Counted from the first letter of the stretch, positions 41,616 to 60,695 are shown. The stretch: 64,000 nt of DNA from Fidelibacterota bacterium (GCA_017656425.1 JACDNV010000006.1:42542-106541); one strand, 5' to 3'. Numbers and translations are program-made. Notes: a model not told the origin generated them from the letters alone.

Positions 41616-41740
41616 GAAACTTAGCTAAATTAATTATCCATTTATATTAAATCAAAATTAAAAGAGCAATAAATAGATTTAAAAAAAGGCGGAGGTATAA
41701 AACCCCCGCCTATTTTGGATTAAGGTAATCAAATATTCTA

Positions 41741-43474
41741 CTACTTCATTAATACCATCTTCTTTGTGATCTTCTGTCCAGCAAATTCAACGGTATAGAA
41801 ATAAACTCCACTTGCTAAGTTCGATCCGTCAAAAGTAATATTATATGTTTTCGCAATACCTTCTCCATTCATTAACGTTGTAACTTCCCTACCCAGCATA
41901 TCAAATACTTTCACAGTAACTTTACCTGAATGTGGTAATGTAAAAGTGATATTTGTTGTTGGGTTAAATGGATTTGGATAATTCTGATTTACTTTAAATC
42001 CTTTTAATACATTATTTTCTTCCCTTACTCCAACACCCTGTGGTAATCTACCTTCATCTAATGCTGCAAGTAATTCCTCGTATTGATTATCTCTAATTTG
42101 TAACCATGAACTTTTTTGATCAGGGAACCAGTTTAAATCACCTATAGGATAACCATCGGCATCTACTATATCATCATCACTATATGACAAATCTATTGGT
42201 ACAGGCCAATCTGGATAAACATAAAAATCAGAACCTACAAATACCAATCTCCAGTCTGGTAATATCACTGCCTTAGTAATGTCCATAGTATTAATAGCGA
42301 AATCTCTCAGAGTATCTACATAGGTAGTAAGTAAATTCCTTGGATCAGTGAAATTTGGTAATTTCTCATACCAGGTACCTTCTACTAGATATGGCCAGTT
42401 GTTATCATCATCAAACATTGCCTTCGTTCTTGTATTCATCTTAATTGTTTGGTCATACCATTCATCTGTATTATTTATATTGTTATCTTTCATATATTGA
42501 GCCAAGTTTAATAACCTCGAATCCCAATAAACCAAATTCCTATCAACTAAGACCTTCCTATCAACCTGGTCCATATCAGATGGCAAAGTATCTACATTTA
42601 TAATACCAAGCGGTAATTTATCCTGATCTACTTCAGGAAAATCTTCATCAATATAAGTATAAGGCTGAACGTTACTGTTTACAAAAATGTTATTCGTCAC
42701 AACCCATCTGCTTTGAAAACCGTTAGTCTCAAAAATAATACCAGCACAGTTGATAAAAGTATTGTGATTAAACATTAACAGTTTAATAGGATAATTTCTA
42801 AATTTGTACATCATACCCTGTGCTACAACATGAGTTGAGTTTTCAACCCATATTGTGTCTGTAGCATTATCTACATTATCATATACACCACCATTTCTTC
42901 TACATTCCTGACCACTTAAGTTTACAAAATAGGAATCTCTGATGTAAACTCTCGTCCCAGCCACAGCGTTAGAAGCTATTATCACCCATCTTGTTCGCTC
43001 AGCAATACAATTCTCTAAAGTAATACGACAATTTGGCTGCGTGAACCAGAAGAAAGTCCAACCAAGAGTTCCTTCCGCTGATGCCGGTACTATACATACA
43101 TTTTTAAGAGTAAGGTCTCCCCCAGGATTAATACCGCCTGAGTTACCACCTTTACCACAGATCACCGGAAACATCTTTTGTGGATCACCATTATACAATG
43201 GTTCTGTAGCTTCACCTACGATAACAGTATGCCTATCAGATTTTGTAGTTGGATTACTACCTAATTCATACAATTCACCAGCTTTTAGCAGGTATACACG
43301 ACCTTCTGGTACATTTGCGGTATCATAAGTAATTGCCTCATATAGATACTCTGGTAATACAACTGCAGTATCCCCGCGAAATTCCTCAACATAGTCTGAA
43401 ATAGGGCTTTCTTGAGCAGCTAGCATTACAACCATTGCTAACACTACTAAGGTAACTAAACTCAATTTCTTCAT
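41741..43474 (-). CDS. T9SS-secreted right-handed parallel beta-helix protein (pectate-lyase-fold), paralogue A
   Basis: Signal peptide. Repeated beta-helix rungs (...TNNIFVNSN..., ...HNTFINCAG...). CTD NYPNPFNPTTNITF...SGVYFYTV. Similar in architecture to 54502..56415. Confidence 0.6.
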   Translation of the reverse strand: MKKLSLVTLVVLAMVVMLAAQESPISDYVEEFRGDTAVVLPEYLYEAITYDTANVPEGRVYLLKAGELYELGSNPTTKSDRHTVIVGEATEPLYNGDPQKMFPVICGKGGNSGGINPGGDLTLKNVCIVPASAEGTLGWTFFWFTQPNCRITLENCIAERTRWVIIASNAVAGTRVYIRDSYFVNLSGQECRRNGGVYDNVDNATDTIWVENSTHVVAQGMMYKFRNYPIKLLMFNHNTFINCAGIIFETNGFQSRWVVTNNIFVNSNVQPYTYIDEDFPEVDQDKLPLGIINVDTLPSDMDQVDRKVLVDRNLVYWDSRLLNLAQYMKDNNINNTDEWYDQTIKMNTRTKAMFDDDNNWPYLVEGTWYEKLPNFTDPRNLLTTYVDTLRDFAINTMDITKAVILPDWRLVFVGSDFYVYPDWPVPIDLSYSDDDIVDADGYPIGDLNWFPDQKSSWLQIRDNQYEELLAALDEGRLPQGVGVREENNVLKGFKVNQNYPNPFNPTTNITFTLPHSGKVTVKVFDMLGREVTTLMNGEGIAKTYNITFDGSNLASGVYFYTVEFAGQKITKKMVLMK

Positions 43475-43512
43475 GCTACACCTCCTTTTTTTAACGAATA
43501 CATTTATTAATC

Positions 43513-46500
43513 CTAAAATTTATAGCGTAATACAAGTTCGTATAATGTAGGCGTATACAATTCACCCACCAGAGTTCGTTCTATCTTATCACTTCCAGGC
43601 CTCTTGAATTCTCTATAATTTTTAATTGATGTCCCAGTAAGATTTACAATATTAAATTGCACACTTAGACCCTTAACCGGTAATTTTTGTTTTACTGTTA
43701 GATCCCACCTTGTAATAATTCCAGTATAAACATCATCTTCAGGTCTTGAACCAATATAGGAAACCTCATCATCCGTTAAATTAAATGATAACCTACCAGA
43801 AAAACCTTTATAATCAAACCCCAGGATTAGATTTAAAATGTGATCTGCCTGATGAAGTAGCCTATCTTTATATGTTTTTTCTTTGGTTATATATTTGTAT
43901 TTCTTTACCTTAATCGGACCTACCTGTTCATAATACGCTGAATCTGTATTTTCTATCCTTAAGTATTTCATACTCGACCAGGTCCTGGTATAGTTCACAT
44001 TTATAACGAGAGAATTAAATGGCTTGGGCAAATACCACAAGTTTGACTGCCATTCGAATTCTATACCCCTAACATATCCAGGATATTTATTATTTATATA
44101 TGAATTTATAAGTAATGATTTTTCTGGCAATTTACTCCAGCCCAACTTCTGCATTAATGCAGTATCAGGAAAATTAATCTCATATTTGTCAATATTTTGA
44201 TAATATACTGACGTTGAGAAAAATACATTCTCCAATTTTTTATAGAAAGGAGCAATAGAAATCAATCCAATATTATGACTATAAATTGAAAGCGCGGCAT
44301 CGTAATTTGTCACTTCTGTGGGCTTAAGTTTAGGATTTCCAACCCTTGTGTATCCTCCTGGTTCATATAAGACAGTAGGCACAATTGCCAAATAATCTGG
44401 TCTTGATATTGCCTCTGTATATGCAAGTCGTAGATCTGCCCACTCTGTAAGCTTATATTTTAGCTGCAAATTAGGAAACCAATTTACATCAGATCTGTCT
44501 ACTTCATCTATATCTGTCGAATCATCCTGAACTAAAGCATCTCCATCGACAGGGTGGGTAACAATTAGTATATGACCATCATAATTCATCCTATACTCTT
44601 CCCATCTAATTCCTCCAAGCAATGTTAATCTAGGCCCTATTTTGAAAGTACTCATAAAGTATCCTGCGAGAAAATCTTCTGTCCCGACAAAATCATCTTG
44701 CGTTGACCACTCTTCATGTGTTCCTATACCCCATCCTTTCGGCGCAATTAAGAAAAATGGATCCATTATACCTTTGTCTACTACATATTTAATCGGATAT
44801 TTACCATCAAGAAAATAATTACCTCGTTCGTAACTACTCCTCACCACCTCCATAAATCTCAAAGGATGTGTCGGGCTTAAAGGCTCACTCTCATCTCTCA
44901 CGATAGTATAACCGTCTATATAATAATATATCTTACCATCTTTTTTCTCCCGAGGTATTGCATCGTAAAAGTCAGTATTGCCGGTTCTATTATAATAAGC
45001 TTCTATATCATTTTTACGATATGAATGATCATATTTCCCACCAAATTTTATATCAGCAGTTACTCCATATAATAGCTTAACTGGAATACTAAAATCTACC
45101 TTTGATGTATACAAATGTTGATTAAAATCCTCTTCTCTCGTAGTTGCCCAACCGTGTAACTCAGCCCTATAATAAGAAGAATCATCTATTTCAATTTCAT
45201 AAACATCATTAAGATCCATAGTATCACCCGCAGTCAAGTAATTAATTCCCGCTCCAAAAGGAGATCTATCTTCAAAATTAAAATTCTGGCCTGGATCAGC
45301 GTATCTCTCCACTGTATTTTTATTACTGGATGAATGAGACAAACTAAACTCCATTTTCAGATTACCGAATTTATATTCACCCATTAAAGAATTTATCATC
45401 AATTGTCTCTCATGAAAATCTCTAAATATTGAATACTGCCCCAAGTTTTCTGTAAAAGTAAAAATGTTCCTATAATTAGCAAAATCATTTCTGTTATGAG
45501 ATATGGAATTTTGTAAAATAATCTTACCATTCGGTAATTCATAATCCAGAATAATACTTCCTCCTTTATTGGAAATAATATTCTCTTCATCAGTATAATC
45601 AAAACCAGTCATTCTATATATTCCTTCACCAAATGGAACTGTTGGATCATTAATACTGAAAGATGAACCTATTCTATCATTTCCCACATTAGATCTATCC
45701 ATGTGCCCCTGAATAAAAACTCCTAACTTATTATTAAAAAACCTCTTACTAATACTTGCCCATGACTTATAATTATCAGTTGTTCTATCTAATCCATTAT
45801 AGAAACCTTGACCAAAGAAATCAAAATGTGAACCCTCTGGTGCCTCCATTATTTTTAAATTAACGACACCACCTATTGAATTAGCATCCATATCTGGAGT
45901 TAATACCTTAAAAACTTCTATTCCAGACAACATATTAGAAGAAATAAAACCAAGATTTACTGATCGATCACTTAAGCTTGTAGATGGTAACTGCACCCCA
46001 TTCATCAGAACCACATTCTGTTTTGCCTGAATACCTCTGATTACTACCTTATCCCCATCCTGTAAAGATATACCTGGCAATCTACTAAGGGCAGCTGCAG
46101 CACTTTCGTCAGGCAATTCTTGAATTTTCTCGGAAGAAACTACATTCTTAACGCTTAATGCATTCAATTGCTCATTTATCGCATTTAATTGACCTTTTGC
46201 CTGTGCAGTAACTACTACTTCCTGTAGCTTTAAGCCTTTATAATCCAAAAACGCAGTAACATTGGTTTCTTCTCCAGAGTTAACTACAACAGGAATATCT
46301 TTATCTTCATAGCCAATGAATCTTATTTGTAAAATATAATTTCCGGGAGGTACCCCATCTATCTCAAATCTACCTTCTTCATTAGAGGCAGCACCCATAT
46401 ATGTCCCTTTTACCACTACATTTGCAAATGGTAGCGGTTTTTTAGTCTTACTGTCATAGACAAAACCTACTATTTTCCCGTTTTCCTGTGGAAAAACTAT

Positions 46501-46560
46501 TTGAAAAAAAGTTAAAAAACAGAGTAATGAAATTGTTGCGAAGCTAATTACCTTATTCAT
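43513..46560 (-). CDS. TonB-dependent receptor, SusC/RagA-like (N-terminal CarbopepD_reg domain), paralogue A
   Basis: 1015 aa. CarbopepD-like GKIVGFVYDSKTKKPLPFANVVV...GNYILQIRFIGYE, a plug region and a C-terminal aromatic residue (…LRYKF). Confidence 0.8.
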   Translation of the reverse strand: MNKVISFATISLLCFLTFFQIVFPQENGKIVGFVYDSKTKKPLPFANVVVKGTYMGAASNEEGRFEIDGVPPGNYILQIRFIGYEDKDIPVVVNSGEETNVTAFLDYKGLKLQEVVVTAQAKGQLNAINEQLNALSVKNVVSSEKIQELPDESAAAALSRLPGISLQDGDKVVIRGIQAKQNVVLMNGVQLPSTSLSDRSVNLGFISSNMLSGIEVFKVLTPDMDANSIGGVVNLKIMEAPEGSHFDFFGQGFYNGLDRTTDNYKSWASISKRFFNNKLGVFIQGHMDRSNVGNDRIGSSFSINDPTVPFGEGIYRMTGFDYTDEENIISNKGGSIILDYELPNGKIILQNSISHNRNDFANYRNIFTFTENLGQYSIFRDFHERQLMINSLMGEYKFGNLKMEFSLSHSSSNKNTVERYADPGQNFNFEDRSPFGAGINYLTAGDTMDLNDVYEIEIDDSSYYRAELHGWATTREEDFNQHLYTSKVDFSIPVKLLYGVTADIKFGGKYDHSYRKNDIEAYYNRTGNTDFYDAIPREKKDGKIYYYIDGYTIVRDESEPLSPTHPLRFMEVVRSSYERGNYFLDGKYPIKYVVDKGIMDPFFLIAPKGWGIGTHEEWSTQDDFVGTEDFLAGYFMSTFKIGPRLTLLGGIRWEEYRMNYDGHILIVTHPVDGDALVQDDSTDIDEVDRSDVNWFPNLQLKYKLTEWADLRLAYTEAISRPDYLAIVPTVLYEPGGYTRVGNPKLKPTEVTNYDAALSIYSHNIGLISIAPFYKKLENVFFSTSVYYQNIDKYEINFPDTALMQKLGWSKLPEKSLLINSYINNKYPGYVRGIEFEWQSNLWYLPKPFNSLVINVNYTRTWSSMKYLRIENTDSAYYEQVGPIKVKKYKYITKEKTYKDRLLHQADHILNLILGFDYKGFSGRLSFNLTDDEVSYIGSRPEDDVYTGIITRWDLTVKQKLPVKGLSVQFNIVNLTGTSIKNYREFKRPGSDKIERTLVGELYTPTLYELVLRYKF

Positions 46561-46744
46561 ATCCCCCCTCTTATTTTTTGTAGTTCAATTTCGCCAACAC
46601 GAAATTATTATAATATAATTTATGTTAAATGTCAATAAAATAATTTATATACTAATCATTAAAATTTAACTATTGATTTTTATAAAATTGTTAATATATT
46701 TTAACTAAAGCATTTTGAAATTAATAAATATATGGAGGGTTTAA

Positions 46745-49132
46745 ATGACTTGTTCTAACACAATCAAATTTTTTGCGGTCTATTTAATTCTAATTATTTC
46801 AATTGCTATTTCACAAACAGTTAAAAACGGTGGTTTTGAAAACACCTCTTTAGGTGAAATAACGAACGAAAGTATCGAAGGTTGGTCTTTCCCTGTGGGA
46901 TCAAGTGTTTCAGACCCACCCTATTTCGCTATAGTTGATGATACTGTACACAAAGGAAACCACGCTTTAATGGTTGTGGTAAAATCTATTGGTACTAATG
47001 ACTGGGACATACAGGCAGTAGCCGAAAGCATTAAAGTAGATCCAGCCAAAACTTACATCTATTCAGTCTGGGCAAAGTCAAAAAAAGGAAATGCAAAAGT
47101 AAATTTTACAGTCGGTAATTACATCTATCACGAATACGGAAGAATAGGAGGTGTTACCCTTTCAACAGAATGGGAGAATTTTACATTTGAATTTCAATTA
47201 GACGACGGCAGTACAACTATAAGAGCTCCAATTCATTTTAATTTTTCTGAAAATATCAGAGATACAATATGGATTGATGATTTCAAAATTATAGATGTTG
47301 AAAAAGAATTTGCCTCAAGAGTACCAGTGATCATTGAAGCAGAAGATGGAGAACTTGGTGAAGATTTTACAACTGGTACCGACGGAGACATTACATACAT
47401 CACTGTCACAACAGATTATGCTGCTGATGTTGCAAAAAGTGCTCCAGATACCCTCAACAGAAACAAGAGAACTGTAAAATACAATGTGCTATTCCCATAT
47501 GCAGGTACATATAGCTTATATGCTAAAGTAAAGGTGGGTCCAAATGGATATAATGATGATAGCTTCTGGTATTCCAACGGATTTGGAGATAAGGACGCTT
47601 CCAATCCCGATGATTGGATAGCTGTAAATGGATTAGCTAACGCAGGTTTTACAAATGCCGAAGATGTAATCTTTGAACGTGGGGCGGCTGGAAACAATGT
47701 CTGGAAGTGGGTAAATCTATCGAATAATAAAATGGAAGGTGAGGTACCAATTAATTTTACGGTTCAAGAAGATAGTACCACAGTTATTTTTATGATTGGT
47801 GGCCGTGAAGATGGATTATATTTCGATAAGTTTGCCTTTGGTCGCTCTGATTTATATTTCACTGTTGAAATGCTTGATAGTGCCTGGGCAGGATCTCCAG
47901 AATGGCCAAAAGAACCCGTTGAAACCTGGCCTGGACCACCATTAGCCACAGGCCATATTAAATTCCTTGGAAACGTATGGAGTAGCCCACAAAAGAAAGA
48001 TTTTGAAAAGTACTGGAATCAGGTAACACCTGAAAATGCTGGAAAATGGGGTTCTGTCGAGGGAACAAGAGATGTTATGAACTGGACTATACTTGATGAA
48101 GCTTACAATTTTGCAAAAGAACATGAATTCCCATTTATGTTTCACGTCCTTATATGGGGAGCACAACAACCTTCCTGGATGAATGATAATACTTTAACTG
48201 ATGATGAAAAATATGAAGAGATCACGGAATGGTTCCATGCAGTCGCTGATAGATACCCTGATATTGACTTCTTACAGGTTGTCAACGAACCTTTACATCA
48301 ACCACCTCAATACAAAAGCGCTCTCGGCGGCAATGGAGATACAGGCTGGGATTGGGTAATAAATGCATTTCAATTAGCAAGAGATATTTTCCCGGATACT
48401 GTAAAACTAATGATAAACGACTTCGGAATCATTGGAAGTACAAGCTCTACCCAACAGTATTTAAACATAATAAACCTTCTTAAAGAAAGAGGTCTAATTG
48501 ACGCTATTGGAGTACAGGGGCATGCATTTACCACTTACTATGCTTCCACATCCACTATAAAATCATGTCTCGATTTATTGGCATCCACAGGTTTACCCGT
48601 CTATGTTACTGAATTAGATATAGATGGTGTTGACGATCAGGTTCAATTAGAAGAATATCAAAGAGTATTTCCAACACTTTATCAGCACCCTGGAGTTATG
48701 GGAATAACTCTCTGGGGATGGAGACGTGGACTATGGAGAGATGAACAGGGAGCATATCTTATAAACAGTGATGGCTCCGAAAGACCAGCCATGAAATGGT
48801 TAATTGCCTATATGGATACTGTACAGGATTATGTTTCAATTGAAGAAGATTTAGTTCAAGGGAATCCACTTGAATTTAAATTATACAACAATTATCCAAA
48901 TCCATTTAACCCAACAACAACTATAAGTTTCTCAGTTCCAATAAATACTCACGTAAAGCTCACTGTATTTAATATTTTAGGACAGTATGTAGAAACAATA
49001 TATCAAGGTAACGTAACTCCCGGTACATATTCTATTCTTTTTGATGGTTCACAATTAGAAAGTGGAATATATTTCTATCGAATCGATGCGGATGGTTTTA
49101 GCCAGACGAAAAAGTTTATACTTCTAAAATAG
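46745..49132 (+). CDS. T9SS-secreted endo-1,4-beta-xylanase GH10 with N-terminal CBM4_9/CBM22-like modules
   Basis: The GH10 core has WNQVTPENAGKW...VVNEP...VYVTELDIDG, with the catalytic Glu in NEP and TELD. The N-terminal CBM has GGFENT...WIDDFKI. CTD NYPNPFNPTTTISF...SGIYFYRI. Confidence 0.85.
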   Translation: MTCSNTIKFFAVYLILIISIAISQTVKNGGFENTSLGEITNESIEGWSFPVGSSVSDPPYFAIVDDTVHKGNHALMVVVKSIGTNDWDIQAVAESIKVDPAKTYIYSVWAKSKKGNAKVNFTVGNYIYHEYGRIGGVTLSTEWENFTFEFQLDDGSTTIRAPIHFNFSENIRDTIWIDDFKIIDVEKEFASRVPVIIEAEDGELGEDFTTGTDGDITYITVTTDYAADVAKSAPDTLNRNKRTVKYNVLFPYAGTYSLYAKVKVGPNGYNDDSFWYSNGFGDKDASNPDDWIAVNGLANAGFTNAEDVIFERGAAGNNVWKWVNLSNNKMEGEVPINFTVQEDSTTVIFMIGGREDGLYFDKFAFGRSDLYFTVEMLDSAWAGSPEWPKEPVETWPGPPLATGHIKFLGNVWSSPQKKDFEKYWNQVTPENAGKWGSVEGTRDVMNWTILDEAYNFAKEHEFPFMFHVLIWGAQQPSWMNDNTLTDDEKYEEITEWFHAVADRYPDIDFLQVVNEPLHQPPQYKSALGGNGDTGWDWVINAFQLARDIFPDTVKLMINDFGIIGSTSSTQQYLNIINLLKERGLIDAIGVQGHAFTTYYASTSTIKSCLDLLASTGLPVYVTELDIDGVDDQVQLEEYQRVFPTLYQHPGVMGITLWGWRRGLWRDEQGAYLINSDGSERPAMKWLIAYMDTVQDYVSIEEDLVQGNPLEFKLYNNYPNPFNPTTTISFSVPINTHVKLTVFNILGQYVETIYQGNVTPGTYSILFDGSQLESGIYFYRIDADGFSQTKKFILLK

Positions 49133-49149
49133 AACAACACGGAGTTAAT

Positions 49150-49186
49150 AAAAAAGGGGCGGTTATTATCACTGCCCCTTTTTTAT
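49150..49186 (+). terminator. bidirectional rho-independent terminator between convergent GH10 and GH127 genes
   Basis: Sequence aaaaaggggcggttattatcactgcccctttttt: a GC stem flanked by an A-run and a T-run. Confidence 0.7.
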
Positions 49187-49215
49187 TACATTTTAAAATC
49201 ACAAAAAATCAAAAA

Positions 49216-51159: not shown

Positions 51160-51242
51160 TCCTTACTACCTCCTTAGCTAATTAGCCTCATAAATCATTA
51201 CTATACACTTAGTTTAGGGAGAAAAATTGTCTATACAGTAGA

Positions 51243-51288
51243 CAATACAAAAATAAAGACAGCCTGCTGTATGTATGGCAGGCTGCCT
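51243..51288 (-). terminator. rho-independent terminator downstream of the large T9SS repeat protein gene
   Basis: Perfect 8-bp stem cagcctgc/gcaggctg (51260-51287). On the minus strand it is followed by tctttatttttg. Confidence 0.65.
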
Positions 51289-51322
51289 TCATTTTATAAC
51301 ATTTTTACCGTATATAATATTC

Positions 51323-54300
51323 CTACTTCAGTAACATTAGCTTTTTAACCTTAGTAAATTCACCAGCTACCATTTTGTAGAAGTAAACTCCAGATGGTAA
51401 TCTACCAGCATCAAAAGTAATTCTATAATAACCAGCTTTGTAGTATCCCTTTGCAAGTGTGGCTACCTGTCTTCCCATAATATCGTAGACCACTATCTTC
51501 ACATCAGTATCTTTCGGTAATGTAAATTCGATATTAGTCGTCGGGTTGAATGGGTTCGGATAGTTCTGTTTGAGTTCAAATTCCACTGGTCTATTAGCAA
51601 AATCAGGTCCTATAGCGACTTCTGGAGTATTTGTTGTATCAGCTTTCAGCCCGATAAATTTTATAGCCGCAACTCTACTATTAGTAGTATTTAGTGCGAA
51701 CAGAAAGCTATTTATCGTGTCAGTAACCACATTATTATCATATGCAGATGCTTCAAATATATAGCTATTATCTTTCTTGGATAATTTAATTTTAACACAT
51801 GCATTTCCATCGGCATCTTTACCATAATAAAGTTCGAACTCGTATTTACCTGAATCTCCTATTGCTCCTGCAGGAGATTGAACTGCATCGCTTAAAACAT
51901 AATTGTCCGGACCATTCGTCGATAACCATACATTATTCACTACTGCACCAATCGAACCACTCACACCGGAAGCAAGCCAGTATGGTAATGGATTGTCACC
52001 ACTTGGGGGAATGAACAAATATCCAGTTCCAATTTCTGAACCTGTCCAGTGATAATCAACGAGTTCGCCAGCATCTGAATTGAACAATCCCAATCTCATT
52101 GCATTGTCATTATCAAAACCACCTCCAATAAGTTCCATTTCACCATATACTTTAACTGCTCTACCAGCTTCAGGTATGATAGGTGCATCAAATTCACCCC
52201 TAATAGCTATCCAAGCTGAAGTTTGAACGATAGGATATAAAGTAAAATCTCCAACAAATTCTCCAGGCTGTAATGTCCATTGACCATTACCATTCCTACC
52301 ACCTACAAATCCAATATCTGATAAGTAATGATTAACAAAAGGAGGTAATGGTATTTTTATTGGATCACCCTTATCTACCTTAACCTCGTAAAGTTTTACC
52401 AACTTTGTCTGTGAATCCTTATTGAAACCAAAGCATATTAGATTAAATTTTGTAGTTATCTGTGCTGAATCATAGGCTACGCCGGCAAACCAGTATTTTT
52501 CATTTTCTTCAACAAGATACCAGCGGATTTCATTAATACCGCCAGGTAATGCTTTAACCGAAATCGCGAAATCATACATCCCGGCTATCATTTCTGCATT
52601 ACGTGGTCTTTGCTCAACTTGTGATAGTGCCCATGTTCCAGCACTGTTAGTACTGTACCAACTACCATCAGGCTCTCTCCAAACAACTCCAACTTTGGCA
52701 TAAGCAGGTACCCCTCTCCAGGTATTTGACATAGTTCCCGTTCCAGTTCGAGGTGTGAATAGGTAGGTATCCCAAGTTCCTTCACTAACCCATCTTGCAG
52801 AATCAGTCAGTGCATTCTCTAACTTAGCATCCTCTTGATATGCTAACCCATATCTTATATGGGTATATGCGCTACCACCACCTCCTCCTATGAGCTCAAG
52901 TTTACCAGTTACAATAATTGCCTTCTCCTCACTAATCTCAACAGCTTCGCCAAAACCACCTGCTATAGTTGCCCAGTTTGATGGCGGATTCGTAAGTGTT
53001 GTGTCTCCAAATATTGCATCGCCAACCAGCGTCGTCGAATCATTAAGAATAGCCCAATTCATATCTGCATTCAATCTATCTTTACCCCACAGATCAACAT
53101 AAAATGGTTCCCATGGAGCTTCAGGCACCTCTATAGGATCTCCCATGTCTACTTCAACACCATACAATTTTACCAGCTTTGTCTGTGAATCCTTATTAAA
53201 ACCGAAGCATATCTGGTTAAATTTTGTAGTTATCATCACTGAATCATAGGCTACACCACCAAACCAATATTTATTATTTTCCTCAACAAGATACCAGCGT
53301 ATTTCGTTTATACTATCAGGTAATACTCTAACAGAAATTGCAAAATCATACATTCCTGCAATCATTTCTGCATTACGAGGTGCCTGTAACTGTTGCGATA
53401 AAGCCCACGTTCCAGCGCTATTAGTACTGTACCAACTACCATCAGGCTCTCTCCAGACTACTCCAACTTTGGCATAAGCAGGTACTCCTCTCCAGGTATT
53501 TGACATAGTTCCCATTCCAGTTCGAGGTGTGAATAGGTAACTAAACCAATTCTTGGGGCTTTCCCACTTTGCACTATCGGTATTTTGATACTTCAACACA
53601 GCGCTATCCTGATATGCAACTGCATACCTCATATGGGTATATGCACTACCACCACCTCCTCCTATGAGCTCAAGTTTACCACGAATAATCACAGCTTTAT
53701 CGGTAGTTGCCTGTACTTCGTCAAAACCACCTGCTATGGTTGCCCAGCCTGATGGCGGATTCGTAAGTGTTGTGTCTCCAAATATTACATCACCTCTTGG
53801 CATTTCAGGTACGTTAAGAAGATCCCAATTCGTATCTGCATTCAATCTATCCTTACCCCATTTGTAAACAGGAATAGGAAAAGTCCTAAGAATAAACTCG
53901 ATATCATCAGCATACCAGATTGTAGTAACTCCAGTACCTCCGATATTTCCAGTACCGGCACAATTAATTCCAAAAGCTAAATAGATAGTATCTTCGAGTG
54001 ATGCAAGGTAACCAGGTGACGGATTGGTTAACTTGAAAGCTATCTCTTCCCACTCGGTCGAAGCCTCATTTACATTACGATTATAAGACCCAACCTTTAC
54101 ACTTGAATTATTATAGGCTTGTGCTGTTGGTGAGTCCTGATAGGCTTCTACAATAATATCTTTCCAACCCACATCTCCCTGTTTGAAGAAAAACTTAATT
54201 TTAATCGAATCATAATCTGCAAGTGTTTTGCCTTCTTCCAGTACCACCTTAACTACTGGTGCAGCATTGTAATTGTTAGGCGTGAATTTTAACGCCTTAT

Positions 54301-54493
54301 TACCAGGCTCTCCGGGTAATGTGTCGATTACAGCAGTTTCCCCTGTATTCCAACCAATAACATCAAGCGTATCACCTATTTCGTAATCTTCAAAATCAAT
54401 TACCTGTGCCTGTAATGCTATCCCGCTTAAAAATAGGATACACATTACAAATACGGGCCAAATGTTTCTTTTTTTCTTCATTTTACCCTCCAT
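51323..54493 (-). CDS. large T9SS-secreted protein with three tandem ~257-aa internal repeats (two near-identical), unknown function
   Basis: 1056 aa with a signal peptide. Repeats begin WGKDRLNAD(T/M)NW... and contain GKLELIGGGGGSAYTH and WRGVPAYAKVGVVWREPDGSWYSTNSAGTWALSQ. CTD NYPNPFNPTTNIEF...SGVYFYKM. Confidence 0.6.
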   Translation of the reverse strand: MEGKMKKKRNIWPVFVMCILFLSGIALQAQVIDFEDYEIGDTLDVIGWNTGETAVIDTLPGEPGNKALKFTPNNYNAAPVVKVVLEEGKTLADYDSIKIKFFFKQGDVGWKDIIVEAYQDSPTAQAYNNSSVKVGSYNRNVNEASTEWEEIAFKLTNPSPGYLASLEDTIYLAFGINCAGTGNIGGTGVTTIWYADDIEFILRTFPIPVYKWGKDRLNADTNWDLLNVPEMPRGDVIFGDTTLTNPPSGWATIAGGFDEVQATTDKAVIIRGKLELIGGGGGSAYTHMRYAVAYQDSAVLKYQNTDSAKWESPKNWFSYLFTPRTGMGTMSNTWRGVPAYAKVGVVWREPDGSWYSTNSAGTWALSQQLQAPRNAEMIAGMYDFAISVRVLPDSINEIRWYLVEENNKYWFGGVAYDSVMITTKFNQICFGFNKDSQTKLVKLYGVEVDMGDPIEVPEAPWEPFYVDLWGKDRLNADMNWAILNDSTTLVGDAIFGDTTLTNPPSNWATIAGGFGEAVEISEEKAIIVTGKLELIGGGGGSAYTHIRYGLAYQEDAKLENALTDSARWVSEGTWDTYLFTPRTGTGTMSNTWRGVPAYAKVGVVWREPDGSWYSTNSAGTWALSQVEQRPRNAEMIAGMYDFAISVKALPGGINEIRWYLVEENEKYWFAGVAYDSAQITTKFNLICFGFNKDSQTKLVKLYEVKVDKGDPIKIPLPPFVNHYLSDIGFVGGRNGNGQWTLQPGEFVGDFTLYPIVQTSAWIAIRGEFDAPIIPEAGRAVKVYGEMELIGGGFDNDNAMRLGLFNSDAGELVDYHWTGSEIGTGYLFIPPSGDNPLPYWLASGVSGSIGAVVNNVWLSTNGPDNYVLSDAVQSPAGAIGDSGKYEFELYYGKDADGNACVKIKLSKKDNSYIFEASAYDNNVVTDTINSFLFALNTTNSRVAAIKFIGLKADTTNTPEVAIGPDFANRPVEFELKQNYPNPFNPTTNIEFTLPKDTDVKIVVYDIMGRQVATLAKGYYKAGYYRITFDAGRLPSGVYFYKMVAGEFTKVKKLMLLK
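52340..53880 (-). repeat. intragenic tandem duplication, period ~774 bp, ~90 % nucleotide identity between copies
   Basis: The spurious plus-strand ORFs 52890..53102 and 53664..53867 are near-identical and offset by 774 nt. The protein repeats 1 and 2 are also near-identical. Confidence 0.8.
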
Positions 54494-54501
54494 ACTATTA
54501 T

Positions 54502-56415
54502 TTATTTAATTAATAATAATTTTCTTGTTAGCATTATGCCATCTGTTTCTAAACGATAAATATATACTCCACTTGGTAAGTCTTTACCATCAAATACTAC
54601 TTTATAATTACCTTTCTGCTTGAATTCACTGACTATAGTTGTAACCTCTTTTCCAATCATATTATAAACTTTTAGTTTAACAAAACCTGCCTTGGGAAGA
54701 TAATATTCAATAGTTGTAACGGGATTGAATGGATTTGGATAATTCTGTTTTAATTCATAGGATTTTAACGCAATTTCATTAATATCTTTTATTGCATTAC
54801 CTTGACTATCAGGATGTACTCCGGTTACCAACCATGTCCATATCTTTTCTCTTTCCTGATCAGCCTGCTGCAACCACTGCGAATAATAATCCTCAGCCCC
54901 TTCCCTTAAATCTGGGTTCCACCAATTATACAAATCTCCTAATGGGAATCCACCCATAGCATAGGACTTAAGCAGTTCATTTGTATATGCAAGGTTTTCT
55001 GGTAAAGGCCATTCCTGATTTTTACCAGCTTCAGGTTTATAATCCCACATGTAATCAGCATTGGTTGACCATTTTTGTTCAAGAAATAATTTTAGACTAT
55101 CGAGGTCAAGTGGTGGTTCAAAAAAGCCCGGATTTAAAGTTTCTGTCAAGGTTTGAGGATCGGAGGTAATATCTAGATTATTTGCCCTGTTTATATAGGG
55201 AAAAGCTTTCACAACTTCACCAGTTGCAGAATCCACAATTGTTGAATCACAGAAATCCTTTGTCCAGCTATCCAGCATTGGCCTTGGATAAGGAATTTCA
55301 TCAAATCTCCTTTCTCTATATAAACCTTGAACATAAGGACAGCCTACATCCATTATTCTACTACTCGGCTTCCACTCAGCGTCTTTAGTCCAGCCTCCTC
55401 TCATCCAATCTACTAACCAGCTGTCAACATAATAAGCGTTATGTGCTATTAGAATATGTCTATCCTTGTCACTAAAAGGAACTTTAAAATCAATTGAGTC
55501 AGCAGGTGTAATTGACATTATAGCACCTGAAGGATCCTCTCCTTGAGCTGGAATAAAACCCAGCATATAAGCATTTACAAATAATGAATTTGTAACATTT
55601 GCCCAGTAATATACACCACCTTCAAGGGAAAACATAACAACATTATAAAATGTACAGTGATTAAAATATACTGTATCTGCATAGTTATTCATCTCCTGCA
55701 TATAAACATATCCCATATTGGCAAAAGTACAATTTTCAAAGGATACATAGTCTGTATGATAGTCCGGCACGTCATAAGGAAACGATACCGCGCGCCCATA
55801 ATACATATAATGCTTATCTACACAATTACGAAAATAACAATTTTTAAGTTCAAGATGTAAATGTACCGCTCGAACACAGATACTTCCAGAAGCTGTTACT
55901 GCAGGACATGGCATCCACTCAAAAACACATCCTTCGAAATAACCATACTGTTGTGTTGTATCCGTTGCATCCTGATCGAAAACTATAGGTGTTCCAGTTT
56001 GAACTCCATCTATATCTGCATACCTTACCCATATATTCTTCATAATGAGATGACCGAATACTCTTATATGAAATTCTTTAGTAACAGCACCACTTGCAGT
56101 CCATAAAATTTGAGGTGGTGCAGTTTCCTGTGTATTACCAGGAGGTGGAGCAACTAACTCTAAGGTCTCTCCTTCGGGAACTTCTATAGTAGCTGTCAAG
56201 ACATATTGTTCATAGGGTTTTAATCTAAAGACTGTATTGGATAATGTTCCATTATTTATAGCTTCCTGTACTGCTTCATTCAATGTTCCTTCTTGCCCAC
56301 CTGATTCCCAGTATCCAGGTACATCTACAGTATCTTTTTGTTGCCCAAATAATAATGGAAATGTAACAACAAAAATAATTAAACTTAAGATAATTTTTTT
56401 CATCCTTTCCTCCAC
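54502..56415 (-). CDS. T9SS-secreted right-handed parallel beta-helix protein, paralogue B
   Basis: Signal peptide. Beta-helix rungs (NCTFANMGY, NHCTFYNVV, TNSLFVNAY). CTD NYPNPFNPVTTIEY...SGVYIYRL. Immediately downstream of TonB-dependent receptor paralogue B. Confidence 0.6.
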   Translation of the reverse strand: MEERMKKIILSLIIFVVTFPLLFGQQKDTVDVPGYWESGGQEGTLNEAVQEAINNGTLSNTVFRLKPYEQYVLTATIEVPEGETLELVAPPPGNTQETAPPQILWTASGAVTKEFHIRVFGHLIMKNIWVRYADIDGVQTGTPIVFDQDATDTTQQYGYFEGCVFEWMPCPAVTASGSICVRAVHLHLELKNCYFRNCVDKHYMYYGRAVSFPYDVPDYHTDYVSFENCTFANMGYVYMQEMNNYADTVYFNHCTFYNVVMFSLEGGVYYWANVTNSLFVNAYMLGFIPAQGEDPSGAIMSITPADSIDFKVPFSDKDRHILIAHNAYYVDSWLVDWMRGGWTKDAEWKPSSRIMDVGCPYVQGLYRERRFDEIPYPRPMLDSWTKDFCDSTIVDSATGEVVKAFPYINRANNLDITSDPQTLTETLNPGFFEPPLDLDSLKLFLEQKWSTNADYMWDYKPEAGKNQEWPLPENLAYTNELLKSYAMGGFPLGDLYNWWNPDLREGAEDYYSQWLQQADQEREKIWTWLVTGVHPDSQGNAIKDINEIALKSYELKQNYPNPFNPVTTIEYYLPKAGFVKLKVYNMIGKEVTTIVSEFKQKGNYKVVFDGKDLPSGVYIYRLETDGIMLTRKLLLIK

Positions 56416-56422
56416 TTATTAT

Positions 56423-59400
56423 TTAAAATCTAAACCTTATACCTGCATTCGCGACCATACCATAGTATTTCATATTTGTAAATCCATCAATGGTTATCTG
56501 AGCAGATTCATTTATTTCATTATTGAGATTTGTTACATCGAGATATATTTCAGATTTCCATACCGGTAATTTCTGCCTTACAGATAGATCAATTTTAAAA
56601 TAATCCCTTGTATATCCATCCTGTTCTGGGTACGAACCAACATAACTTGCCATATCGCCCTGATAATTAAATGACAATCTAATAGAAAATCCTTTATGAT
56701 CATAACCAACGTAAGCATTCAGAATATCATCAGGTTGATATATAAGCCTTCCTGTACGAGTACTATCAACAACGAATGTCTCCGTTTGTCGTGGACCAAC
56801 AATCACAGTTTTATCTTCTCTTAATGGATATTTAGTCTCTGATTTTATTTTTGCATAATTTATACCAAACACCACACCTTTCATTAATCCAGGCATAAAC
56901 CATAACCTTGTTTGGAAATCAAATTCGATTCCCTTAACATATGCTGGCCAGATACCATTAATATATGTAGACACTGTAGCTTTTCGTTCAGGTTTGTACA
57001 CACTTACTGTACCATCTTTATTCACAATAACGATCTGAAAATCGTCTATTGTTTTGATTGTTTCATACTTTTTTACATCATATAATCTATAGTTCGTATG
57101 ATATATAAAATCTTTTATCTTTTTATAAAAAGCGCCAATCGTTAGAAGCCCCAGCCTGTTTCCGTGAAATGCTATTGCAAAATCATGATTAAAAGATTGG
57201 CCCGGTTTTAAATCAGGATTACCAGCCCATACATAGTTTCTTGGATTATTAAAACTTATCTTGGGCGACATCTGATGGTATGCAGGACGTGCCAGACTTT
57301 TAGTATATGCATATCTAATATCCATCCAGTCAAACGGAGAAATCTTTATAGAAACCGCTGGCAGTAAGTACTCATTTGGATTTCTTGTTTCAACTGTATC
57401 TACCGCCTGGTTCTCTGGATTTCGCATGTCAAACATATTATACACCGTATAATTATTTATTGTCTTTTCATATCGAGCACCGCCAATAAATTTAATTTTC
57501 CATAAATTTATCTCAGTCATCAGATACCCGGCATAATATTCCTCACTAAAAATGTAATCATTAGCTGATTGCTGGAATAGCCCATTATACCAGCCTCCTG
57601 TCTCATCAGGACCGCCAGTGGCTTTACCAGCCCATCTTGGATCACTATTTAAATATTCTGCTATTTTAAGAAGAAGGTCTGAATCGGGCACCCAGTGCAT
57701 TCTCCCAAATCTATCATTTAAGAACGGTTCCATCAATTCTGCATCACCCATAAAATTTGTCCCTGGATACCTTGCAACCTGAGGATCTACAAAAAGATTA
57801 AATCTTGCAGCAACCGTATCAAGCATACGCTGTTGATAATTCCCAGAATATTGCATACCAGCATAGGGTGCTTCCTGATCATTTATAATCTCTTTAAAGA
57901 AATATTCACCTCCGAATTTTACATAACCAGAAATGAAACTACCTATTTTATATGGTACTTTCAAAAATGATTTAACAGATTTCTTAGATTCTTTATATAA
58001 TGTAGACCATAATTGTATGGTATTTAAATATATCGAATCGGGTCCCGGATAAATCCAGTTGACCTTTAATGACTCTGGTTTAGTATTTTCAGGTACTTTA
58101 CCGACACCCTTATACGCAACACCTGATCTGAAAGAAACATACGGAGATTCAGGTAAATTATTCTTTGACATTGTATTTGCTAACTTCAAATTAAAAATTA
58201 CACCATTAAAGTCATTATTAAATTCAAGTGAGTTTAATAATATATCGATATTATTTGATCCTTCCCTCATATTGAATCCAATTAACCTATCATTATAATT
58301 CAGTACAGTCCTGTAATCCTCAAAGTCAGAATTACGGCGAGCATAAAGGTTTAACATTTTTATGTATCCATATGGCAATCTGTAATCCAATATTAAGTTT
58401 GCTCCATAACGTTCCCTTGTTTCTACATGCCTATTCAAAGTTACATTAGTAACCCTTACAGGCCGATAACCGGTTAATGTATCAATTTCTACACTTGTGG
58501 TTATATAACCAGCATTCATAATATCAGCATCTCTATCGTATTTTTCCATATTCCCGAGTAAATAAAAACCCAATCTTTCATTAAAAATTCTATTGCTTAC
58601 AGAGACAACAAACCTATAGTTACCGTAATTATTTGTCATATAGGTATATCCAGACTGACCTAATATATCATACCTGAATCCTGAGGGTGCTTCCCTGAGT
58701 TGCATCTCAACTGTACCGCCAACAGTATTAGCATTCATATCAGGTGTTATAGACTTATAAACCGATATAGATTTAATCATATAAGGAGAAATCATGCTCA
58801 AATCTACACTTCTATCAGTATTAACGTGACCAGCTCCACCTGCTATTGCTGTTACTCCCATTTGGGTACTTCCCGTAGATGTTAATCTAACGCCTTCAAC
58901 TGAAACCGAATTATACTGGGGCGCTATACCTCTGATGACCACCTTATTTGCTTCTCCTGAGCTTTCGAGTGTGGATACGCCGGGTAACCTACTCAGGGCC
59001 TGAGCAGCATTAAAATCTGGCAATTCCTGAAGCCTGGCTTCTGAAACAACATTTGCTATTTTATCTGATGCCAACTGCTGACTTATAGCTTGTACCTGTC
59101 CCAAAGCCTGTGCGGTTACTACCACTTCTTTACCCCTTACTGTAATAGGACTAAGACCAAAATCTTGTGTTACTGATCCTGTTGTAGGAACTTTAACTTT
59201 GATTGTACGTGTTTCATATCCTATATATGAAACTACAACTTCATATTCTCCTTCCGGAACATTTTGTATGTAAAAATTTCCATCTAAATCTGAAGCAGCT
59301 CCAAAGTTAGTACCTTTCAAATAAATATTAGCAGCTGGCAGGGGTTTTTCACTGTTTTTATCATATACTTTACCCTTTAAAACACCAGCATTAATACTAT

Positions 59401-59464
59401 TAAATGTAAATAATATTAAAAATGAAAAGATTAATACTCTAATCCTCTTAATATTAGAGTTCAT
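56423..59464 (-). CDS. TonB-dependent receptor, SusC/RagA-like, paralogue B
   Basis: 1013 aa. GVLKGKVYDKNSEKPLPAANIYL...GEYEVVVSYIGYE, plug region, C-terminal F. Same architecture as 43513..46560. Confidence 0.8.
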   Translation of the reverse strand: MNSNIKRIRVLIFSFLILFTFNSINAGVLKGKVYDKNSEKPLPAANIYLKGTNFGAASDLDGNFYIQNVPEGEYEVVVSYIGYETRTIKVKVPTTGSVTQDFGLSPITVRGKEVVVTAQALGQVQAISQQLASDKIANVVSEARLQELPDFNAAQALSRLPGVSTLESSGEANKVVIRGIAPQYNSVSVEGVRLTSTGSTQMGVTAIAGGAGHVNTDRSVDLSMISPYMIKSISVYKSITPDMNANTVGGTVEMQLREAPSGFRYDILGQSGYTYMTNNYGNYRFVVSVSNRIFNERLGFYLLGNMEKYDRDADIMNAGYITTSVEIDTLTGYRPVRVTNVTLNRHVETRERYGANLILDYRLPYGYIKMLNLYARRNSDFEDYRTVLNYNDRLIGFNMREGSNNIDILLNSLEFNNDFNGVIFNLKLANTMSKNNLPESPYVSFRSGVAYKGVGKVPENTKPESLKVNWIYPGPDSIYLNTIQLWSTLYKESKKSVKSFLKVPYKIGSFISGYVKFGGEYFFKEIINDQEAPYAGMQYSGNYQQRMLDTVAARFNLFVDPQVARYPGTNFMGDAELMEPFLNDRFGRMHWVPDSDLLLKIAEYLNSDPRWAGKATGGPDETGGWYNGLFQQSANDYIFSEEYYAGYLMTEINLWKIKFIGGARYEKTINNYTVYNMFDMRNPENQAVDTVETRNPNEYLLPAVSIKISPFDWMDIRYAYTKSLARPAYHQMSPKISFNNPRNYVWAGNPDLKPGQSFNHDFAIAFHGNRLGLLTIGAFYKKIKDFIYHTNYRLYDVKKYETIKTIDDFQIVIVNKDGTVSVYKPERKATVSTYINGIWPAYVKGIEFDFQTRLWFMPGLMKGVVFGINYAKIKSETKYPLREDKTVIVGPRQTETFVVDSTRTGRLIYQPDDILNAYVGYDHKGFSIRLSFNYQGDMASYVGSYPEQDGYTRDYFKIDLSVRQKLPVWKSEIYLDVTNLNNEINESAQITIDGFTNMKYYGMVANAGIRFRF

Positions 59465-59645: not shown

Positions 59646-60695
59646 TTATTTATAATTTTTTACCGCATCGATAAATGCACTAATATTTTCACTTGATACC
59701 CCAGGAGGCATTCCACCACCACAAGAAAGTATAACTCTCGATCGATCCTTCAGCGAATTCATCAAATCTACTACAGCTTTTTTTACATCTTCTGGTTTAC
59801 CCTGTGCCAGTACGTCACGAGGTGGTATATTACCCAGGAGTGTAACCATATTGCCTGTCAGCTCTTTCAACTCATTTAATGTTATGTCGAAACCCATATT
59901 AAAAAGATTAACCCCAATCTCGGGCAAGTACTTAGCACTGACTTTACATGGTGCGTCATTGTGTAAAAATTTCACTGATACATCAACATCAAACAACTCC
60001 TTTAAATAAGGCAATGCAAACTCTTTAAAATGATCTTCGCCAATAAAACCAATTATATCATCAAGAATGAGTATACCATCAATTGTTGGGAATGTTTCTC
60101 TTTGAAATTTGTGCCAGTTCTTCAAAAAAATTGTAACTTTTTTTAATAAATCATGTACCTCATCAGGATTAGTCATAATTGCTGTCAAAAATTCTGTCAT
60201 TCCCATAATATAGGAAGCTACATTCAAAGGTCCACGGCTCACAGAGAACCTGATTTTATGTCCTGTTTCTTCGATTTTATTTTTATACATTTTTAAACGG
60301 TTGATCATAAATGGCAATAGCCCATCAGTTGTAACCTCAGGAATATTCAGGTTTCTGATCTCATCAATAGATTTTACGACCTTATGGGCGTGGGGAAAAC
60401 CATTTTCAGTAAACACACACCTTGCGCCAAATGCGGATGGCTCCGTACACATTCCGAATTCCGACCAAAATCCAGGGAAAAACATAATATCAGGAAAACT
60501 TGTTACTGCTTTAAGGTTTGCCTGAAACCACAGTTCAGGTGATGTAAAATAGTCAAGAATGGTTATACCATACCACCCGGGAAGCCATGGACAGTCTATA
60601 ATAAAACCTATAGGCATAGGTTCTATCAGTTCCCCATTTATTACATCTAATAATACTTGCCATTGTTTATCAGTCATATCTATACCCCCTTTCAA
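59646..60695 (-). CDS. uroporphyrinogen decarboxylase (URO-D)-family protein (MtaA-like methyltransferase fold)
   Basis: 349 aa URO-D-like TIM barrel. Overlaps the GH67 gene stop by 4 bp. Confidence 0.6.
   Translation of the reverse strand: MKGGIDMTDKQWQVLLDVINGELIEPMPIGFIIDCPWLPGWYGITILDYFTSPELWFQANLKAVTSFPDIMFFPGFWSEFGMCTEPSAFGARCVFTENGFPHAHKVVKSIDEIRNLNIPEVTTDGLLPFMINRLKMYKNKIEETGHKIRFSVSRGPLNVASYIMGMTEFLTAIMTNPDEVHDLLKKVTIFLKNWHKFQRETFPTIDGILILDDIIGFIGEDHFKEFALPYLKELFDVDVSVKFLHNDAPCKVSAKYLPEIGVNLFNMGFDITLNELKELTGNMVTLLGNIPPRDVLAQGKPEDVKKAVVDLMNSLKDRSRVILSCGGGMPPGVSSENISAFIDAVKNYK

Follow-up and report, generated by a model that had tools for sequence, protein, structure and literature searches.

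Polysaccharide utilisation loci (PULs) are recognised and predicted by the SusC/SusD gene pair, which largely confines the predictions to Bacteroidota. A CarboxypepD_reg-type N-terminal extension is typical of SusC, and SusD is an alpha-helical, TPR-like protein. In Bacteroides thetaiotaomicron the beta-helix proteins BT1030 and BT1026 are encoded beside susC/D and bind homogalacturonan and rhamnogalacturonan II (RG-II), and BT1030 lacks conserved active-site residues (bioRxiv 10.64898/2026.03.13.711244). Xylan and arabinoxylan are bound by the carbohydrate-binding module (CBM) CBM89 of CapGH10 (PDB 7JVI), a right-handed beta-helix without catalytic function (PMC8810776). BtuG, encoded beside the TonB-dependent transporter BtuB, provides a precedent for a non-SusD fold as an extracellular capture lid (PMC10404256). 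Here, a stretch of 64,000 nucleotides from a Fidelibacterota bacterium (GCA_017656425.1 JACDNV010000006.1:42542-106541), called the window in the following, was analysed. It contains two cassettes, A and B, in which the gene of a TonB-dependent receptor (TBDR_A, TBDR_B) is followed by the gene of a beta-helix protein with a sorting domain of the type IX secretion system (T9SS). These beta-helix proteins are termed X_A and X_B, and their family X. Judged by sequence, receptor and X form a conserved and widespread transporter plus T9SS beta-helix module of Ignavibacteriota, Marinimicrobia, KSB1 and related metagenome-assembled genomes (MAGs). The module is broader than the two cassettes noticed in an earlier inspection of the DNA without database searches (the sequence-only reading), and it would amount to a PUL-like route of glycan import in which both the partner protein and its anchoring differ. 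Among the open-access papers and preprints searched, none was found to describe, for Ignavibacteria, Marinimicrobia or Calditrichaeota, a TonB-dependent receptor paired with a beta-helix protein sorted by T9SS.

As in SusC/SusD systems (PMC7782687), the transporter gene is found directly before the gene for a surface protein of about 550-630 aa, and the receptors share an N-terminal extension before the plug. The receptor-X pairs lie in clusters of genes for carbohydrate-active enzymes (CAZymes), are duplicated, co-diverge and sometimes stand in tandem, and some of their loci show regulation by extracytoplasmic function (ECF) sigma/anti-sigma factors or LacI. In B-type cassettes a third gene, Y, takes the position of SusE/F in Bacteroides loci. 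Differences became visible at the level of both proteins. X is a beta-helix protein, and SusD/RagB models matched neither X_A nor X_B (Pfam, NCBIfam) nor any of 40 aligned family members at E <= 1. While SusD is lipid-anchored, X is T9SS-sorted and has no lipobox, as Cys is absent from both signal peptides, MKKLSLVTLVVLAMVVMLAAQES and MKKIILSLIIFVVTFPLLFGQQKD. The receptor barrel is of the TIGR01782 type and stays below the cut-off of the SusC model. A receptor gene is missing beside about 15% of X genes, and a receptor-X complex is only suggested by gene adjacency and co-divergence. An assignment of the pair to SusC/SusD, as suggested by gene sizes and order, was rejected on the missing SusD match, the beta-helix fold and the failure of the receptor on the SusC/RagA model TIGR04056.

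Both receptors contain CarboxypepD_reg, Plug and barrel domains (Pfam). In order, a signal peptide, the CarboxypepD_reg-type N-terminal extension, the stretch EVVVTAQA, the plug, the barrel and a C-terminal Phe were found in each. The EVVVTAQA stretch, common to the two proteins, is TonB-box-like and stands before the plug, where the TonB box is expected. Using TIGR01782 (TonB-Xanth-Caul subfamily, curated cut-off 310 bits), TBDR_A scored 339.3 and TBDR_B 319.6 bits with nearly the full model covered. The SusC/RagA model (cut-off 368.25 bits) gave 78.7 bits for TBDR_B, below cut-off and restricted to residues 29-237 comprising N-terminal extension and plug, and was not listed for TBDR_A in the NCBIfam scan. 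The receptors are members of TIGR01782 and not SusC, yet with a SusC-like N-terminal extension. The same receptor subfamily occurs in the CAZyme-rich carbohydrate utilisation loci containing TonB-dependent receptors (CUT loci) of Xanthomonas and Caulobacter, again with no SusD (PMC1790865). In contrast to the CUT loci, the receptor described here has the conserved partner X and the SusC-type N-terminal extension. To our knowledge, neither T9SS cargo nor a gene for a surface partner of their own accompanies the CUT receptors.

The sequence-only reading had proposed two paralogous cassettes of identical gene order and strand, and all four open reading frames were located at the positions first reported, on the minus strand. 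Alignment bore out the paralogy. For TBDR_A and TBDR_B, identity amounts to 30% along the entire proteins (E 2e-135). X_A and X_B align in two parts, some 350 N-terminal residues with 25% identity (E 2e-10) and the final 170 residues with 39% (E 9e-33). No third X copy was found in the window by tblastn with the X ectodomains. Of the proposed gaps of 8-38 bp, the 38 nt between TBDR_A and X_A, which contain AAGGAGG, were retained, as was the length of 577 aa for X_A. For X_B, previously given as 637 aa from a GTG at 56415, the ATG at 56403 is the most likely start codon, because it is preceded by a GGAGG ribosome-binding site and because the deposited protein, which matches with 100% identity and full coverage, comprises 633 aa. 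The second gap therefore measures 19 nt instead of 8, with the GGAGG inside it, and the protein 633 aa.

Signals of transcription were scanned over 19 kb. The promoter candidate of the TBDR_A-X_A unit (Table 1) is the sole perfect TTGACA-17-TATAAT match within this region; as the overall number of promoter-like sites was not above that of shuffled sequence, it is regarded as suggestive only. Shuffled sequence contained more terminator-like sites than the 4 present here. Since the 12/12 promoter match and a strong terminator bracket the pair, TBDR_A and X_A appear to form a two-gene transcription unit. On its minus strand, the divergent intergenic region upstream of TBDR_A contains the perfect sigma-70 consensus, and on its plus strand several matches of lower quality; it is likely a regulatory region shared by TBDR_A and the divergent xylanase gene. 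No regulator gene was identified in the window.

The T9SS sorting of X, already noticed from the sequence, was confirmed with scores above cut-off in both proteins. X_A reached 50.9 bits on TIGR04183 and 49.2 bits on PF18962, X_B 41.0 and 37.5 bits, at cut-offs of 23 (TIGR04183) and 27 (PF18962). Using Foldseek, the modelled sorting domain of X_A matched the T9SS substrate sorting domains 8glk_D and 8gl6_D. Going by the sorting domain alone, X is probably attached covalently to the surface after secretion via T9SS. AlphaFold2 (AF2) models were obtained with a pLDDT of 87.1 and a pTM of 0.78 for X_A and with 91.7 and 0.92 for the X_B ectodomain. In both models a beta-helix of regular short strands is followed by a mixed alpha/beta subdomain which closes in a long helix. 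In X_A, the signal peptide is followed by the right-handed beta-helix (residues ~29-316), the mixed alpha/beta C-terminal subdomain with the long helix at 451-474, a disordered linker (482-492) and the type A T9SS sorting domain (495-575). X_B is composed of signal peptide, beta-helix, a C-terminal subdomain with the motif of X_A described below, and a type A T9SS sorting domain. The large Foldseek matches of the models were right-handed beta-helix proteins in every case, and the Beta_helix model PF13229 matched 30 of the 40 aligned homologs (best E 4e-8), with X_B itself at 18.5 bits staying below the cut-off of 25.9. The beta-helix recognised by eye was thus confirmed at the level of the structure models as a right-handed parallel beta-helix of the pectate-lyase-like superfamily.

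The further claim of an unclassified family without known catalytic signature also held. Beyond the sorting domain no family of Pfam or NCBIfam passed the threshold in X_A or X_B, which leaves about 480-550 residues outside recognised families. Models for GH28, PL1, PL3, PL9 and CE8 were not listed for the two proteins and a conserved DD-like motif was not found; models of polysaccharide lyases (PL), of glycoside hydrolase (GH) family GH28, of carbohydrate esterase (CE) family CE8 and of NosD were absent from the 40 aligned members even at E <= 1 (Pfam). Searches of PDB sequences with profiles and single sequences yielded sorting-domain or chance matches only. For X_A, no PDB structure was matched by Foldseek at E <= 1e-3, and the best beta-helix match was a PL6 lyase with a TM of 0.27. 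The best match of X_B was the PL6 alginate lyase BcAlyPL6 (7dmk; E 1e-5, TMq 0.39, 14% identity, 330 aligned columns), followed by other PL6 lyases, adenovirus LH3, VexL, tailspikes, CE8, PL1 and GH28. A viral fold library gave just generic tailspike and depolymerase matches. On these models the similarity to PL6 and the others is best described as generic beta-helix similarity. X matches no known GH, PL, CE or CBM family and, by sequence comparison, is classed as a previously unclassified family.

X_A and X_B have hundreds of close homologs each, annotated merely as "T9SS type A sorting domain-containing". They originate from Marinimicrobia, Ignavibacteria, Melioribacter, the cultured Rosettibacter firmus (P0014, L081), KSB1, Calditrichaeota and unclassified MAGs, and a MAG protein deposited under 'Candidatus Marinimicrobia bacterium' is identical to X_A. 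P0003, 66% identical to X_A, carries the NCBI label 'Candidatus Anstonellales archaeon'; as it is a T9SS cargo, the label almost certainly reflects a mis-binned bacterial contig. Among 1.84 billion representatives searched, 408 X clusters (50% identity) were found at E <= 1e-3 and 178 at the stricter limit of E <= 1e-10. Some family members carry additional domains, among them FIVAR. In P0251 (1117 aa) an S8 subtilase is joined N-terminally to the X domain, and in P0255 (942 aa) X is followed by cohesin and dockerin domains.

For the analysis of gene neighbourhoods, 80 metagenome loci with an A-type X were found using an alignment without the sorting domain. A scan of genome contigs with the full-length alignment was keyed on QNYPNPFN, a generic motif of the sorting domain, so that most of its 80 loci were unrelated T9SS cargo, with L001, L003 and L050 being relevant. 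In 42 of the metagenome loci the sequence extends 3.2 kb or more upstream of X, and in 36 of these a receptor gene ends at most about 250 nt 5' of the A-type X gene. Requiring at least 300 nt upstream, the receptor was found in this position in 55 of 67 loci. The order of receptor and X was present in all independent genome or contig loci (9/9). A-type loci continue with a gene for a membrane-anchored parvulin-type peptidyl-prolyl isomerase (PPIase), found 3' of X in 38 of 46 metagenome loci, and often with a gene for a 780-aa polytopic membrane protein. B-type loci continue with Y, a T9SS protein of 1026-1387 aa with internal repeats. Receptors of A-type loci co-diverge with A-type X proteins, and those of B-type loci with B-type X proteins. 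In total, at least five co-diverging receptor-X subtypes were found (A and B of the window, L050, L169 and L172).

The L050 subtype is about 25-30% identical to both types of the window. In L169, an X protein bearing a CBM35 follows the receptor, and the locus contains an SSF symporter, GH130, a 2-epimerase and TonB, a mannan-type pathway. L172 (4027-13584) shows a tandem order of transporter and X (T-X-T-X; 959, 555, 1012 and 555 aa) adjoining a sulfatase gene, with the two receptors 53% and the two X proteins 42% identical; this subtype probably targets a sulfated glycan. Across subtypes, identities are 30-53% for receptors and 22-42% for X proteins, hence X is the faster-evolving partner. 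The enzymes of the loci vary as well: GH10/GH67/GH127 (window), GH9/GH12 (window, L081), GH16/GH10 (L088), GH130 (L169) and sulfatase (L172). Upstream in L082, genes for an ECF sigma factor, a FecR anti-sigma factor and an STN-domain receptor were found, and in L087 a LacI regulator, which points to PUL-style regulation in both loci.

Conservation along X was analysed using 87 members at 22-56% identity. The most conserved segment of the ectodomain is the C-terminal motif WPxPxxLxY...GxPxGDLxxW at 416-460 with 2.35 bits, rising to 2.89 bits at 431-450, compared to 1.59 bits for the beta-helix. The motif lies nearest to the anchor, where contact with the receptor would be expected. Within the helix, N212, T214, H237 and T239 are 99-100% invariant and occupy equivalent ladder positions on successive rungs, an arrangement which suggests structural ladders. 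No invariant acidic pair or triad was found across the 87 members. The candidate acids showed exchanges between D and E or a conservation of 68-91% only, leaving no strictly invariant acid position. PL6 enzymes use a catalytic Lys and Arg plus a Ca2+-binding Asn/Glu/Glu set. No such invariant set was found in the alignment of the 87 members, a comparison at the level of sequence.

With somewhat better than even confidence we regard X as the T9SS-anchored glycan-capture partner of its receptor, in the role of SusD or of a surface glycan-binding protein. Each cassette would then constitute an outer-membrane glycan-import module in a PUL-like locus of an FCB-group (Fibrobacteres-Chlorobi-Bacteroidetes) bacterium outside the Bacteroidota. 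The receptor, with its TIGR01782-type barrel and SusC-like N-terminal extension, would be co-transcribed with X. X would be exported by Sec, pass the outer membrane through T9SS and be retained at the surface via its C-terminal sorting domain. Its variable helix would bind the target polysaccharide, or oligosaccharides freed by the surface endo-enzymes of the locus, while docking to the receptor, or close to it, would fall to the conserved C-terminal subdomain beside the anchor, which would then pass the glycan over. The role of SusD and of SusE/F-type binders would be fulfilled with an unrelated fold and an unrelated anchor.

This capture role is favoured because X stays beside the transporter while enzymes and substrates change, and because receptor-X pairing, the co-divergence of subtypes and the tandem pairs of L172 link the two proteins. 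The PUL-style regulators of L082 and L087 and the two-gene unit of TBDR_A and X_A argue in the same direction. The loci of the window already encode T9SS-sorted endo-enzymes (GH10, GH12) and a CBM9-only protein, X belongs to no known enzyme family, its conservation peaks in the C-terminal motif and not in the helix, and no acidic pair or triad is invariant. Non-catalytic glycan binders with a beta-helix have precedents in BT1030/BT1026 and CBM89. The idea of substrate-specific capture modules put forward in the sequence-only reading fits these data.

The precedents differ from X in several respects. BT1030, BT1026 (DUF4957) and BT4112 (DUF5123) resemble X as beta-helix or solenoid proteins encoded beside PUL transporter genes. 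The Bacteroides proteins, however, accompany SusD, whereas X is found where no SusD gene is present. They are described as part of a lipoprotein-based surface system, while X would be anchored as T9SS cargo, and the targets of BT1030 and BT1026 are pectic as opposed to apparently hemicellulosic for the X loci. DUF5123 weakly matched 21 of the 40 X-family members (best E 0.002) and DUF4957 one of the 40; X_B reached 12.2 bits over 30 residues of DUF5123 compared to a gathering cut-off of 35.1. As none of these matches comes near the threshold and each is confined to one rung motif, homology of X to DUF5123 or DUF4957 is unproven, and the DUF5123 match could reflect remote homology or merely the shared rung motif. 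CBM89 stems from a xylan-degrading locus, and X_B from a locus with GH10 and GH67 which points to xylan; CBM89, however, forms part of a GH10 enzyme, in contrast to X, which is encoded on its own and has a transporter as partner. The top 50 Foldseek matches of either X model did not include 7JVI, nor did searches of PDB sequences up to E <= 10. Unlike the T9SS-sorted X of glycan loci, BtuG is lipid-anchored as a lipoprotein and serves vitamin B12.

Several observations weigh against a capture role. In 10 of the 80 metagenome loci, an X homolog 42-47% identical to X_A had no detectable receptor upstream, and about 14-18% of A-type X genes stand without adjacent receptor amid GH43, GH3 and GH29 genes. 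SusD genes seldom stand apart from their receptor as these orphan X genes do. In L157 (470-7692) two receptor-less X copies flank genes for a PA14 esterase and a GH43 with CBM6, with GH3 following, and in L161 (5872-7698) a receptor-less X gene lies between those for a PAS histidine kinase and GH29. The glycan context was constant in both of these loci; the adjacency to a transporter is strong, not absolute. Melioribacter roseus was reported to carry a classical SusCDE (starch) operon (PMC3534657), hence X is not simply a replacement in SusD-less lineages. The assumption that SusD is absent from X-bearing phyla was dropped on account of this operon.

Further points of this kind belong to the most serious alternative, in which X founds a new family of surface-anchored beta-helix CAZymes (hydrolase, lyase or esterase) that cut polysaccharide beside the receptor for import. 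The sequence-only reading had thought of a lyase or hydrolase family; of this, the unclassified family stood, while an enzyme is possible though not the best-supported reading, given the varied loci and the lack of invariant acids. We consider this alternative rather unlikely. It draws on a fold used by PL1, PL3, PL6, PL9, GH28, GH55 and CE8, and on the PL6 lyases (BcAlyPL6, AlyGC 5gkd, chondroitinase B-like 7o78) as the solved folds closest to the X_B ectodomain. With a TM of at most 0.39 and 14% identity this similarity is generic, and no Pfam PL6 match was found in the 40 members at E <= 1, nor one to any other known catalytic family. The substrates suggested for the X loci are, moreover, mainly neutral hemicelluloses and not uronic-acid polymers. 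Longer X members fused to CBM35 or CBM4_9 without any other catalytic domain are a classic signature of an undiscovered catalytic module, the receptor-less copies amid GH genes would suit an enzyme, and the stretch of L169 seen shows no obvious endo-mannanase. The conserved polar positions H237 (100%), R306 (93%), E159 (97% D/E), D206 (91%), E154 (86%) and K124 (84%) could form an active or metal site. On the other hand, D/E exchanges and 68-91% conservation are unusual in catalytic residues, it is not the helix in which conservation is highest, and the loci already hold endo-enzymes. A single enzyme family would also have to span xylan, glucan, mannan-type and sulfated-glycan loci and always stand beside a transporter.

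Roles other than capture partner or new CAZyme family are, even taken together, decidedly improbable. X might be a general surface adhesin or structural protein of the cell envelope which is merely co-regulated and has no direct part in glycan capture or import. Beta-helix adhesins exist, with PfbA (4mr0) among the weak fold matches, and the fusions to cohesin plus dockerin or to FIVAR as well as the copies without adjacent receptor would agree with such a function. It is hardly to be expected, as co-divergence of subtypes, the T-X-T-X tandem and exclusively CAZyme-rich contexts are hard to explain without a transport-linked, substrate-specific role. Least probable of all appears an action of X on the receptor instead of the substrate, as extracellular plug or gate or as assembly factor, perhaps linked to the downstream PPIase. 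The strong conservation of the C-terminal motif irrespective of substrate type and the PPIase of A-type loci were counted for it; B-type and other subtypes have no PPIase, CBM fusions point to carbohydrate contact, and the helix varies between subtypes as a ligand-binding surface would.

If X is a capture partner, a module of transporter and surface binder evolved independently of SusD, X offers a marker by which glycan-uptake loci of the phyla concerned can be annotated, and T9SS would be linked directly to nutrient import. More far-reaching is the interpretation that receptor and X are a second, unrecognised glycan-import architecture of the FCB group, with the T9SS-anchored X capping or docking on a non-SusC transporter in place of the SusD lid; we hold it tentatively and with clearly less than even confidence. 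If true, X together with the WPxP...GDLxxW motif would be a PUL marker in Ignavibacteriota, Marinimicrobia, KSB1, Calditrichota and relatives, and searches keyed on SusC/SusD would miss the receptor-X loci. The module is spread over several environmentally abundant, mostly uncultured phyla. Should X be an enzyme instead, a new CAZy family with many subtypes would result. Either outcome is testable in cultured hosts such as Rosettibacter firmus.

The coordinates of the cassettes and of their neighbours are summarised in Table 1. The region of 30-64 kb is a minus-strand run of carbohydrate-utilisation genes.

Table 1. Cassette genes, neighbouring genes and putative transcription signals in the window.
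Feature	Position	Strand	Description
GH51-like arabinofuranosidase	30201-32141	-	
GH12 + T9SS sorting domain	32256-33593	-	
CBM9 + T9SS sorting domain only	33644-34780	-	378 aa
GH9	34832-37402	-	3' of cassette A
U781	37413-39758	-	781 aa, ~15 predicted transmembrane segments, central SpeE-like (spermidine-synthase-like) domain
Parvulin-type PPIase	39825-41615	-	596 aa, one N-terminal membrane anchor, PpiD/SurA-like, Rotamase_2; third gene of A-type cassettes
Intrinsic-terminator-like hairpin	41687-41711	-	10 bp stem with 7 G-C pairs, then T-run; starts 30 nt past X_A stop
X_A	41741-43474	-	577 aa, T9SS-sorted right-handed beta-helix protein
TBDR_A	43513-46560	-	1015 aa, TonB-dependent outer-membrane transporter (Pfam, NCBIfam)
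Divergent intergenic region	46561-46744		184 nt between TBDR_A and the CBM4_9-GH10 gene
Promoter candidate of TBDR_A-X_A unit	46607-46635	-	TTGACA-17-TATAAT, 12/12 consensus matches, ~45 nt 5' of TBDR_A start codon
CBM4_9 + GH10 xylanase + T9SS sorting domain	46745-49132	+	Divergent from TBDR_A
GH127 beta-L-arabinofuranosidase-like	49216-51159	-	Last gene of the cassette B string
Y	51323-54493	-	1056 aa, T9SS-sorted, N-terminal module + ~3 tandem ~260-aa repeats; third B-type gene
X_B	54502-56403	-	633 aa, T9SS-sorted beta-helix protein; start at ATG 56403
TBDR_B	56423-59464	-	1013 aa, TonB-dependent transporter, architecture as TBDR_A
MtaA/CmuA-like protein, uroporphyrinogen decarboxylase (URO-D) fold	59646-60695	-	Between GH67 and TBDR_B, 4-nt overlap with GH67
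GH67 alpha-glucuronidase	60692-62806	-	Upstream of cassette B
GH116-like	62816-63877	-	Upstream of cassette B

As the genes for GH116-like, GH67, GH127 and CBM4_9-GH10 proteins and, at 27-30 kb, for a xylose-isomerase-like protein and an FGGY kinase are located nearby, the substrate of cassette B would be glucuronoarabinoxylan. The CBM4_9-GH10 protein is likely a surface endo-xylanase by its domains. For cassette A, which is followed by the GH9, CBM9, GH12 and GH51-like genes, a beta-glucan, xyloglucan or cellulose-derived substrate is suggested. Of the xylan and pectin targets proposed earlier, xylan is in agreement with the neighbouring enzymes of cassette B; pectin is not, with no PL, GH28 or CE8 gene found in the window. 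The sole NCBIfam match of the GH127 protein was 'aceric acid hydrolase' with 492 bits; as this is far below the cut-off of 950, the protein is of uncertain specificity and provides no evidence for the use of RG-II or pectin. The protein consisting of CBM9 and a sorting domain only indicates that the organism displays non-catalytic carbohydrate binders via T9SS.

The repeats of Y carry a recurring WGKDRLNADxNW. They were read directly from the sequence and from overlapping tblastn segments, as a blastp self-comparison gave the identity alignment only. Pfam found the sorting domain and a sub-threshold match to a BgaA-like CBM only. In each B-type locus examined (L003, L086, L087, L088), a homolog of 1026-1387 aa is encoded after X, and Y is a candidate for a multi-domain surface glycan-binding protein. 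Homologs of U781 were found in the A-type loci L081, L082, L121 and L129, between PPIase and GH9 or CE15 genes, with a different gene order in L129, where PPIase is followed by U781 and then by X. Concerning the PPIase of A-type loci, the fold match PDB 8gl8 is entitled a T9SS translocon complex including a 'PPI' component. The URO-D-fold protein reached 78 bits against the MtaA/CmuA methyltransferases (cut-off 235), and in L088 (17071-18740) Pterin_bind and B12-binding genes adjoin the GH10 gene of a B-type locus. Judging by these domains, the proteins may serve the corrinoid-dependent demethylation of 4-O-methylglucuronate released from xylan.

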